Assembly: GCF_051903065.1 (NCBI RefSeq)
Contig: NZ_CP178438.1
Direction: 5' to 3' (one strand)
DNA from: Escherichia coli
GTDB lineage: Bacteria > Pseudomonadota > Gammaproteobacteria > Enterobacterales > Enterobacteriaceae
Length of the DNA stretch: 64,000 nucleotides
Positions 60,753-62,531 of the stretch are shown here, piece after piece. A program made the translations under genes and the position numbers. The notes under the pieces were generated by a model. It did not search any database. It had not been told where the DNA came from and saw only the letters and a list, made by a program, of their open reading frames with translations. Numbering within the stretch: the first letter of the stretch is position 1; every line of letters begins with the position of its first letter.

Positions 60753-61048
60753 TTCCAGACGCGCCATCGTTAGATGGCGCTTTTTATCCGGTGCGCCGTA
60801 AAACCCCATCCTTCAGGGCGGGGATATAAGGCGCGGTTTTCCACCTGACCAGGTGTTTGCTGTTGTTCAATGTATTGGCGGATGACGGATATTGGCGCAC
60901 CTCCGCAGCTACTGGCAAAATAGCCAGGACTCCACAAAACGCCTTTGTAGTAATACCTGACTGCAATATCTGGTCGATCTCGTCGCAGTAACCTACCCGA
61001 TACGCCTTTGAGGCTGTTTACCAGACTGGATATCGCCAGTTTGGGAGG

Positions 61049-61276
61049 TTAGTTAATTAACAAATGGACGTGATCTGGTTCGCCATCCATTTCAACCAGT
61101 TCAGCTTCAAAATAAGCACATACATTTGAAAAGTAAGTGCGTAGTTTTTCTGTCGCGTCATGGTCAAAAATCTGGCGTCGGTATCTGGTGACAAAGACCA
61201 GGTGAACATGCATCAGGAAAACACAATGCCTTCCACGCCGGATATCGGTTTCTTTTTTCACAGACCAAAGTATCAT
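61049..61276 (-). pseudogene. insP: IS200-like Y1 (HUH) transposase TnpA, truncated after the HUH motif
   Basis: 75-aa ORF MILWSVKKETDIRRGRHCVFLMHVHLVFVTRYRRQIFDH...PDHVHLLIN*, about half the normal TnpA length. Confidence 0.7.
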
Positions 61277-61343
61277 TTGACCTGTGAAACGATTACAGGC
61301 ATTTAAATTCCAGTTAAGACCAGGTGGTCAACAGGAGTGTGAA

Positions 61344-62492
61344 ATGAGGCGCTTCGCAGGCGCATGTCGTTTCGTTTTCAATCGTGCTCTGGCACGTCAG
61401 AATGAGAATCATGAGGCCGGTAATAAATACATCCCTTACGGGAAAATGGCTTCCTGGCTGGTTGAGTGGAAAAATGCCACTGAAACGCAATGGCTTAAAG
61501 ATTCTCCCTCACAGCCATTGCAACAGTCACTGAAAGACCTTGAGCGGGCTTACAAAAACTTCTTCCGGAAGCGGGCTGCTTTTCCCCGATTCAAAAAGCG
61601 GGGACAGAATGATGCATTCCGCTACCCGCAGGGCGTTAAGCTCGATCAGGAAAACAGCCGTATTTTTCTGCCGAAACTGGGCTGGATGCGCTACCGGAAT
61701 AGCCGTCAGGTCACGGGTGTTGTGAAAAATGTCACTGTCAGCCAGTCCTGCGGTAAGTGGTACATCAGTATTCAGACAGAAAGTGAAGTATCCACTCCGG
61801 CTCACCCTTCAGCATCAATGGTCGGGCTGGATGCTGGCGTGGCTAAACTCGCCACGCTGTCAGATGGCACAGTCTTTGAGCCTGTAAACAGTTTTCAGAA
61901 AAACCAGAAGACGCTGGCGAGACTTCAGCGACAGTTAAGCCGCAAGGTCAAATTCAGCAACAACTGGCAGAAGCAGAAACGCAAAATACAGCGACTGCAT
62001 TCCTGTATCGCAAATATCCGCAGGGACTACCTTCACAAAGTCACAACGGCCGTCAGCAAAAACCACGCAATGATAGTCATTGAGGATTTGAAGGTCAGCA
62101 ACATGTCAAAGTCAGCAGCGGGTACGGTCAGCCAGCCGGGGCGCAATGTCCGGGCAAAATCAGGTTTAAACCGTTCGATACTGGATCAGGGCTGGTATGA
62201 AATGCGCCGCCAGCTTGAGTACAAGCAGCTCTGGCGTGGCGGTCAGGTGCTTGCTGTTCCGCCAGCGTATACAAGCCAGCGTTGCGCGTACTGTGGTCAT
62301 ACAGCGAAAGAGAACCGCCTGTCACAAAGTAAATTCAGATGCCAGGTATGTGGATATACAGCGAACGCCGATGTAAATGGCGCTCGTAACATTTTAGCGG
62401 CGGGGCACGCCGTTCTTGCCTGTGGAGAGATGGTGCAGTCAGGCCGCCCGTTGAAGCAGGAACCCACCGAAATGATTCAGGCGACAGCCTGA
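61344..62492 (+). CDS. insQ: TnpB (IS605 OrfB family RuvC-like nuclease)
   Basis: ORF 61284-62492 trimmed to [16 protein letters not shown] (382 aa) with AGGAG Shine-Dalgarno; C-terminal zinc finger CAYCGH...CQVCGY. Confidence 0.9.
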
Positions 62493-62531
62493 ACGTAGCA
62501 GGGATCCACGTCCTTCAGGGCGTGGAGGATG

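Follow-up and report, generated by a model that had tools for sequence, protein, structure and literature searches.

Purifying selection on the TnpB nuclease gene of an IS609 copy with a dead transposase in Escherichia coli

Introduction

Why should a nuclease gene be kept intact inside a transposon whose own transposase no longer works? The question is raised by a 64-kb stretch of the Escherichia coli chromosome (contig NZ_CP178438.1; the window hereafter), which carries a copy of IS609 between ydcL and ydcO. This element of the IS200/IS605 family encodes a TnpB-type RNA-guided nuclease, InsQ (gene tnpB or insQ), next to a tnpA transposase pseudogene. We report here that, at this site, tnpB is under purifying selection and tnpA is under none. 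Probably, the window IS609 is an old, vertically inherited and non-autonomous copy that keeps the standard module for homing and retention formed by TnpB and its omega RNA. For around 75% of tnpB genes there is no neighbouring tnpA, and their mobilisation in trans is thought likely (bioRxiv 10.1101/2023.03.14.532601); most tnpB genes being so placed, the arrangement at the window locus is the norm for the family.

The feature is the known IS609, already catalogued and annotated in public genome records. A sequence-only reading of the window had recognised an IS609-like element, and indeed the window copy is 97.9% identical over the whole element (36 differences) to a copy in O157:H7, whose intact 143-aa TnpA (WP_000604943.1) is named "IS200/IS605-like element IS609 family transposase" in RefSeq. 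In strain TUM13936, 100% identical to the window, RefSeq annotates tnpA as a pseudogene with the note "internal stop" and insQ as a gene of 1,209 nt for an "RNA-guided endonuclease InsQ/TnpB family protein"; the locus of K-12 MG1655 is annotated in the same way. With IS609 and insQ catalogued, nuclease and pseudogene named and the TnpB mechanism established, the locus adds little as a discovery. It is rather a natural test case: K-12 combines a single IS609 copy and its dead transposase with a TnpB that seems competent and whose target, the empty allele, is known and present in 38% of the species, and what holds TnpB under selection without a transposase can thus be approached in a standard laboratory organism. 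A practical caution also follows, as E. coli hosts for TnpB or Cas12 assays have an endogenous TnpB, with TTTAT as its transposon-adjacent motif (TAM).

Selection on tnpB and decay of tnpA

The region is present in nearly all of 5,426 complete E. coli genomes. The junction between ydcL and IS609 was found in 3,267 of the 5,426 (60%), and the empty ydcL-ydcO junction in 2,048 (38%). Alleles were then compared at 20 occupied loci, the window included. tnpA is a pseudogene in 20 of these 20 carriers, through lesions that differ between them: codon 76 is TAA in three alleles, the window among them, codon 96 is TGA in eleven, including K-12, a nonsense codon 62 is combined with a 1-bp deletion in two, and a 5-bp deletion is seen in five. 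Altogether, nonsense mutations at three codons and two distinct frameshifts are represented. Two alleles (L004 and L009) show only the loss of the stop at codon 144, with no premature stop, and an active TnpA with an extended C-terminus might still be made from them.

Disruption of tnpB in most other strains, which would have spoken against the sequence-only reading, was not what we found: the open reading frame is intact in 19 of the 20 carriers, the exception being SCU-106 with Q236*. The ratio of non-synonymous to synonymous polymorphism (pN/pS), a crude estimate computed from the segregating sites of these phylogenetically non-independent alleles, is about 1.1 for tnpA (15 non-synonymous to 4 synonymous changes, plus 3 nonsense) and 0.37 for tnpB (30 to 23; p=9e-4 against neutrality). 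When tnpB variants that also occur in IS609 copies elsewhere are set aside, the value is 0.45 (p=0.026). Independent disabling events number five in the 432 bp of tnpA and one in the 1,209 bp of tnpB (p=0.006). All together, these comparisons show that purifying selection acts on tnpB but not on tnpA.

The insertion also has the marks of age. Pairwise diversity is 1.2% in the element, compared with 0.4% and 1.6% in the aligned chromosomal DNA on its two sides; diversity within the range of the flanks indicates an old, vertically inherited insertion. As the closest copy outside the species (Escherichia sp. MOD1, L021) lies at another locus, the ydcL-ydcO insertion seems to be confined to E. coli.

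In the window, the minus strand carries a 75-aa open reading frame (61049-61276) that terminates with ...DHVHLLIN directly after the HUH motif (HVH, residues 69-71 of the tnpA product), just as the sequence-only reading had described. The gene is not truncated, however, as that reading had it, but full length with one nonsense codon: the sole interruption is the in-frame TAA at codon 76 (61051-61049), a position that reads TAT (Tyr) in other alleles, and 92 codons past it stay in frame, including the C-terminal ...WSPGYFASSCGGAPISVIRQYIEQQ. With codon 76 repaired, the product matches NCBIfam NF033573 (transpos_IS200) at E=2.9e-42. Codon 144 (60847-60845), ancestrally the stop, is CAG in the window and the frame continues to 60770, in flanking DNA; this codon is TAG in the O157:H7 copy and CAG in nearly all ydcL-ydcO alleles, where it extends the frame by 25 codons. 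The cis transposase of the window IS609 is inactive, and the element has no autonomous mobility.

The TnpB protein and its expression

InsQ scores 380.6 bits against NCBIfam NF040570 (guided_TnpB; E=9.9e-114, cut-off 100), contains the Pfam domains PF12323 (HTH_OrfB_IS605), PF01385 (OrfB_IS605) and PF07282 (Cas12f1-like TNB), and matches the structure of ISDra2 TnpB (8bf8; phmmer E=2.7e-55). Its RuvC catalytic residues D183/E267/D363 align with D191/E278/D361 of ISDra2, so that the alignment called for by the sequence-only reading revealed no mutation. The zinc cysteines follow the pattern CxxC...CxxC (C334/C337/C353/C356). None of the 20 sampled alleles departs from these catalytic and zinc residues: each residue was inspected in 19 of them, and the 20th (L007) shares its RefSeq protein accession with two of the 19 (100% identical protein). 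The earlier description of an intact TnpB with a zinc finger was therefore correct, except for its length of 382 aa: the protein has 402 aa when read from the GTG at 61284, a start backed by the HTH_OrfB_IS605 domain on residues 1-48, by relatives that align from residue 1 and by the RefSeq gene length of 1,209 nt.

All E. coli IS609 copies start tnpB with GTG, and the box in front of the window gene, TATCAT, is a weakened -10 element. In aligned relatives (L022-L055) the tnpB ATG lies exactly 7 nt after a conserved TATAAT, an arrangement that looks like a leaderless mRNA. This TATAAT/TATCAT box, 7 nt upstream of the tnpB start, is visible only when relatives are aligned; a promoter scan returned no sigma-70 match for tnpB, nor any that would serve as an internal promoter of the omega RNA. 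Transcripts of insQ are present in published transcriptomes (PMC6033998, PMC5379667). The authors of a 2026 paper purified an "IS609" TnpB ortholog, 85% identical to InsQ of the window, and tested it for trans-cleavage using TTAT as the TAM (PMC12781874); our literature search met no report of an omega RNA or of nuclease activity for the chromosomal insQ of E. coli.

These data bear on whether the element could be an inert relic, in which neither gene is functional and tnpB is intact by chance or for want of time. The missing cis transposase, the failure of IS609 ever to transpose in K-12 (PMC5009759) and the GTG start with its weakened -10 box would all fit a relic, as would the Q236* allele and another allele in which a 6-bp deletion removes one arm of an omega-RNA helix. 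Chance survival, however, accords poorly with at least five independent disabling mutations in tnpA, a gene 2.8 times shorter, against one in tnpB, or with the deficit of non-synonymous changes in tnpB, which is seen for locus-private variants as well, or with catalytic and zinc residues that never vary among the 20 alleles. We thus consider a relic distinctly unlikely.

Predicted omega RNA and guide

For the predicted RNA partner of InsQ, 80 related loci were fetched, from Enterobacterales to Burkholderiales and with 58-94% protein identity. The alignment of the tnpB 3' ends is conserved exactly up to GGAGGATGTCAA and stops being so after GTCAA, the sequences being unrelated beyond the element end. 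From 25 sequences of similar length, RNAalifold derived 41 pairs in 8 helices, with compensatory changes at 19 of the 41 pairs; helix 8, the right-end hairpin (62505-62526), has such changes in 6 of its 9 pairs. In the alignment 96.7% of cells were paired, compared with 40-48% when the 3' partners were moved by 1-3 columns, and none of 500 shuffles reached the observed covariation. The fold of the single sequence 62380-62535 is weak by itself (z-score -1.8), and the claim of a structure rests accordingly on covariation. A structured RNA over the 3' end of tnpB and the right end, stopping at the element boundary, is what a TnpB element should have, and the omega RNA that the sequence-only reading had placed there is borne out as a prediction by this conserved, covarying structure at 62384-62535.

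No Rfam family covers the predicted IS609 omega RNA. At a permissive E-value, the Rfam scan gave matches below threshold to HgcC (22.2 bits, gathering score 50), sot0042 (17.0 bits, gathering score 88) and RAGATH-18 (25.4 bits, gathering score 44.9), which we take as hints of omega-RNA homology and not as membership. In these matches the terminal hairpin CC-CG-CCUU-AGGGCG-GG and a core of CCUGUGGAG...GAAGCAGGAA align, although all three scores are well under gathering. HgcC and sot0042 are TnpB-associated transcripts, and all three families are of the guide-RNA type and overlap 3' ends of tnpB. RNAs derived from RAGATH-18 serve as guides of IS607 TnpBs (PMC11061315).

Within E. coli we claim no extra constraint on the RNA: diversity in the omega region did not differ significantly from that in the rest of tnpB among 14 alleles (2/151 against 47/1101, p=0.11), and adding six alleles brought in one with a 6-bp deletion. 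In that allele (strain EC14, L106) the deletion of CCTGAA, at the equivalent of window positions 62488-62493, takes out the tnpB stop and recreates a 402-aa frame (GCC TGA becomes GCG TAG), while the 3' arm of omega-RNA helix 7 is gone.

The 16 nt that follow the right end, TATCGGTTTCTGTCAG, had been proposed as the guide, and the prediction agrees with the empty site: preceded by TTTAT, they give exactly the sequence of the empty ydcL-ydcO junction. The predicted guide is antisense to the last codons of ydcO. Its only match in the 64-kb window is to itself, and the 21-mer of TAM plus guide had no match in 2.9 million viral contigs.

A probable homing and retention module without its transposase

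In the Geobacillus stearothermophilus elements, TnpB cuts the donor joint left by excision, and recombination then restores the element (10.1101/2023.03.14.532601). By analogy with these elements and with ISDra2, the 3' end of the tnpB transcript would fold into the omega-RNA scaffold and be bound by TnpB, the 16 nt of flanking DNA would act as guide, and the complex would cut TATCGGTTTCTGTCAG directly after TTTAT, that is, at the empty ydcL-ydcO junction. Such a target could arise after excision, or arrive on DNA from the 38% of E. coli genomes without the insertion; repair from an occupied copy would then bring the element back. Since the occupied site has GTCAA in place of the TAM and, judging by the one fully sequenced genome with a locus identical to the window, there is no other copy to supply TnpA, the nuclease would be armed and normally without a target. 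The element was also described as immobilised, which is true in cis, the K-12 copy being static in mutation-accumulation lines, but goes too far otherwise: both ends are intact, so TnpA from another copy could still move it.

In domain order (HTH/WED, OrfB_IS605 RuvC, zinc-ribbon TNB) and in its D/E/D catalytic residues, InsQ resembles ISDra2 TnpB of Deinococcus radiodurans (8bf8/8exa/8h1j). In both systems the omega RNA comes from the 3' end of tnpB together with the right end (a prediction for IS609), the guide from flanking DNA, and the TAM coincides with the T-rich motif that the transposase targets. The two are distant in sequence, however; the tnpA of IS609 is divergent and dead, and its TAM is TTTAT, whereas that of ISDra2 is TTGAT. 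With IS608 of Helicobacter pylori and the peel-and-paste mode of IS200/IS605 elements, IS609 shares subterminal hairpins at both ends of one strand, the lack of inverted repeats and of a duplication, the use of sites just 3' of a short T-rich motif, and TCAA as the last bases of the right end. It differs from IS608 in the orientation of tnpA and tnpB, which diverge from start codons 7 bp apart, and in its target motif, TTTAT instead of the TTAC of IS608; tnpA and tnpB are likewise divergent in IS605 and IS606. A further parallel is found in the non-autonomous tnpB-only elements of G. stearothermophilus, which have tnpB and an omega RNA between intact ends without a working cis tnpA, and for which donor-joint cleavage, retention and mobilisation in trans were proposed (10.1101/2023.03.14.532601); IS609, by contrast, still has a full-length tnpA pseudogene, and another copy as a source of TnpA is missing from typical carriers, K-12 among them.

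Several points weigh against a plain retention module. Values of pN/pS of 0.37-0.45 are relaxed compared with our own expectation for E. coli core genes. With its GTG start and weakened -10 box, full-length InsQ may be scarce. A genome without active TnpA has no excision, and the classical trigger for retention is then missing. Moreover, part of the selection signal could stem from exchange with active IS609 copies. Possible sources of the selection on tnpB in lineages without any IS609 transposase are TnpA supplied occasionally by incoming copies and cleavage of incoming empty alleles, and gene-conversion imports from active copies may possibly contribute to the signal. It is also conceivable, if unlikely, that selection keeps insQ and its omega RNA functional in lineages long devoid of TnpA, and that the module has a transposase-independent role, as a guard of its own allele or in an unrecognised host function. 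Were this true, a locus-level guard that destroys empty alleles arriving by horizontal DNA transfer would amount to a chromosomal allele drive.

Allele guarding and domestication as unlikely alternatives

An allele guard would be a selfish property of the locus: TnpB and its omega RNA would cut the empty ydcL-ydcO allele when it comes in by transduction or conjugation, and so shield the occupied allele from replacement by recombination, all without a transposase. The perfect target, TTTAT with the 16-nt guide, does exist within this recombining species, in 2,048 of 5,426 genomes, guarding would account for selection on tnpB without tnpA, and on plasmids TnpB elements have been proposed to behave as gene drives (PMC11870625). 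By our own estimate, however, the selection coefficient gained from rare recombination is likely very small, and expression of the full-length protein is uncertain. We therefore think that guarding is very unlikely to be the explanation.

Domestication, the reading first suggested from sequence alone, would mean that E. coli has recruited TnpB and its omega RNA for a host function, e.g. in defence against mobile DNA or in gene regulation. That tnpB and the omega-RNA region are kept while tnpA decays repeatedly, that the insertion is old and present in 60% of genomes, and that insQ transcripts are found in published transcriptomes (PMC6033998, PMC5379667) would be expected of a recruited gene. 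Nevertheless, we found no positive evidence for it. The guide is merely the flanking 3' end of ydcO, in the sequences compared the one match to it next to a TAM is the empty allele, the canonical target of a selfish element, and the TAM-plus-guide 21-mer is missing from the viral contigs. The site is empty in 38% of E. coli genomes, a nonsense tnpB allele occurs in one of the natural isolates sampled, and pN/pS speaks for moderate constraint only. RuvC and both transposon ends are retained, unlike in the exapted TldR proteins (PMC10705468), and we regard domestication as highly improbable.

TldR proteins are TnpB homologs retained in Enterobacteriaceae without a working transposase, as in the present case, but their RuvC site is inactivated and their guides are aimed at host promoters (PMC10705468). 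In IS609, RuvC, ends and hairpins are intact, the guide is the flanking sequence, and the 64-kb window contains no guide match at a regulatory site of the host outside IS609. A TldR-like repressor is ruled out by the intact RuvC catalytic triad, and a truncated remnant, as the element had been called, by the full length of IS609 and its two intact ends.

IS609 copies at other sites

IS609 occupies other recurrent E. coli sites: the ytfA TetR gene (L003/L018), a DUF3251 gene by nrdR (L017) and yhgE-hslO (L019). Among these, only the O157:H7 copy in ytfA has an intact tnpA. The yhgE-hslO copy has lost its left end and the 3' part of tnpA, its tnpB being intact, and a copy in AREA_504 has an 11-bp deletion in tnpB. 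In the one fully sequenced genome that has a locus identical to the window, no other IS609 copy able to supply TnpA was found; in K-12, IS609 is single-copy and did not move in mutation-accumulation lines (PMC5009759).

The TAA at codon 76 is shared by the window, L007/L010 and the copy at the DUF3251 locus (L017), that is, by copies at two chromosomal loci, and blocks of tnpB polymorphisms are common to IS609 copies at different loci. This sharing suggests gene conversion between copies, or mobilisation in trans of a copy whose tnpA was already dead.

Outside the species, an 81%-identical IS609-like tnpB was found on a 2,057-bp contig of Streptomyces mutabilis JCM 4400 (L032), the other matches being proteobacterial; contamination is more likely here than a true actinobacterial copy.

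Element ends and insertion site

The features of the window IS609 are collected in Table 1. The element lies between the convergent genes ydcL (60084-60752, plus strand) and ydcO (62532-63830, minus strand), downstream of tehB. The sequence-only reading had put it at 60790-62530; the location is right, and comparison with the empty site moves the exact ends to 60788 and 62535.

Table 1. Features of IS609 and its insertion site in the window (positions are those of the 64-kb window).
Feature	Position	Strand	Basis and remarks
Complete IS609 (IS200/IS605 family)	60788..62535	+	1,748 bp; empty-site comparison, ydcL-ydcO site L002
tnpA (Y1 HUH transposase) pseudogene	60845..61276	-	Translation, NCBIfam, RefSeq note, allele table
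tnpB/insQ	61284..62492	+	402 aa, GTG start; NF040570, Pfam, ISDra2 structure match
Internal ATG	61344..61346	+	AGGAG Shine-Dalgarno 6 nt upstream; start of the older 382-aa annotation
Omega-RNA scaffold (predicted)	62384..62535	+	Last 109 nt of tnpB and 43-nt non-coding right end; ends in GGAGGAUGUCAA
16-nt guide TATCGGTTTCTGTCAG (predicted)	62536..62551	+	Flanking DNA; first non-conserved sequence after the right end
Left-end subterminal imperfect hairpin	60793..60834	+	DNA fold; outer stem GCGCC/GGCGC, inner stem CCCC/GGGG
Right-end subterminal hairpin, last omega-RNA helix	62505..62526	+	DNA and RNA folds
ydcL intrinsic terminator	60761..60787	+	Terminator scan; T-tract ends in TTTAT (60783-60787)
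ydcO stop codon (TGA) from the IS609 right end	62532..62534	-	Empty versus occupied ydcO ends

With the junction marked by a slash, the empty site (L002) reads ...GATGGCGCTTTTTAT/TATCGGTTTCTGTCAG..., and the occupied site of the window ...TTTTTAT/CCGGTGCGCC...GGAGGATGTCAA/TATCGGTTTCTG...; around its junction the empty sequence also reads ...GCGCTTTTTAT/TATCGG.... The comparison reveals neither a target-site duplication nor terminal inverted repeats, and the insertion lies 3' of a fixed short motif. Indeed, TTTAT, the TAM, stands immediately 5' of the left end in the window, one of three different E. coli sites where the element follows this motif. The other two are those in the ytfA TetR-family gene and the DUF3251 gene; relatives in other genera have TTTA[T/C] in front of their left ends. 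As the T-tract of the ydcL terminator ends with the TAM, the element landed right behind the terminator hairpin. On the other side, IS609 was inserted within the stop codon of ydcO and its right end supplies a new one, at a cost to ydcO of one extra residue: the C-terminus ...ADRNR-TAA of the empty site (L002, 1588-1590) becomes ...ADRNRY-TGA when occupied.

As is typical of the ends of IS200/IS605 elements, a subterminal hairpin is found at each end. The repeat of the right-end hairpin sequence at 60809-60820, pointed out in the sequence-only reading, is real: TCCTTCAGGGCG has just two exact copies in the window (60809-60820 and 62511-62522), each forming the loop and inner stem of an end hairpin in the DNA fold, and it recurs at the same two positions in relatives from other genera. 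None of 100 shuffles had three or more matches at up to one mismatch, and this 12-mer is not a chance repeat. A copy with one mismatch, TGCTTCAGGGCG, lies far from IS609 on the minus strand (30700-30711) and is taken as chance.

Finally, one "empty" site (strain HH45, L020, 261-303) carries 19 G followed by AGCCAGGGCGTGGAGGATGTCAA between TTTAT and TATCGG. As AGCCAGGGCGTGGAGGATGTCAA corresponds to the last ~20 bp of the IS609 right end, the site is either a true, near-complete deletion of IS609 or an assembly artefact, poly-G runs being suspicious.

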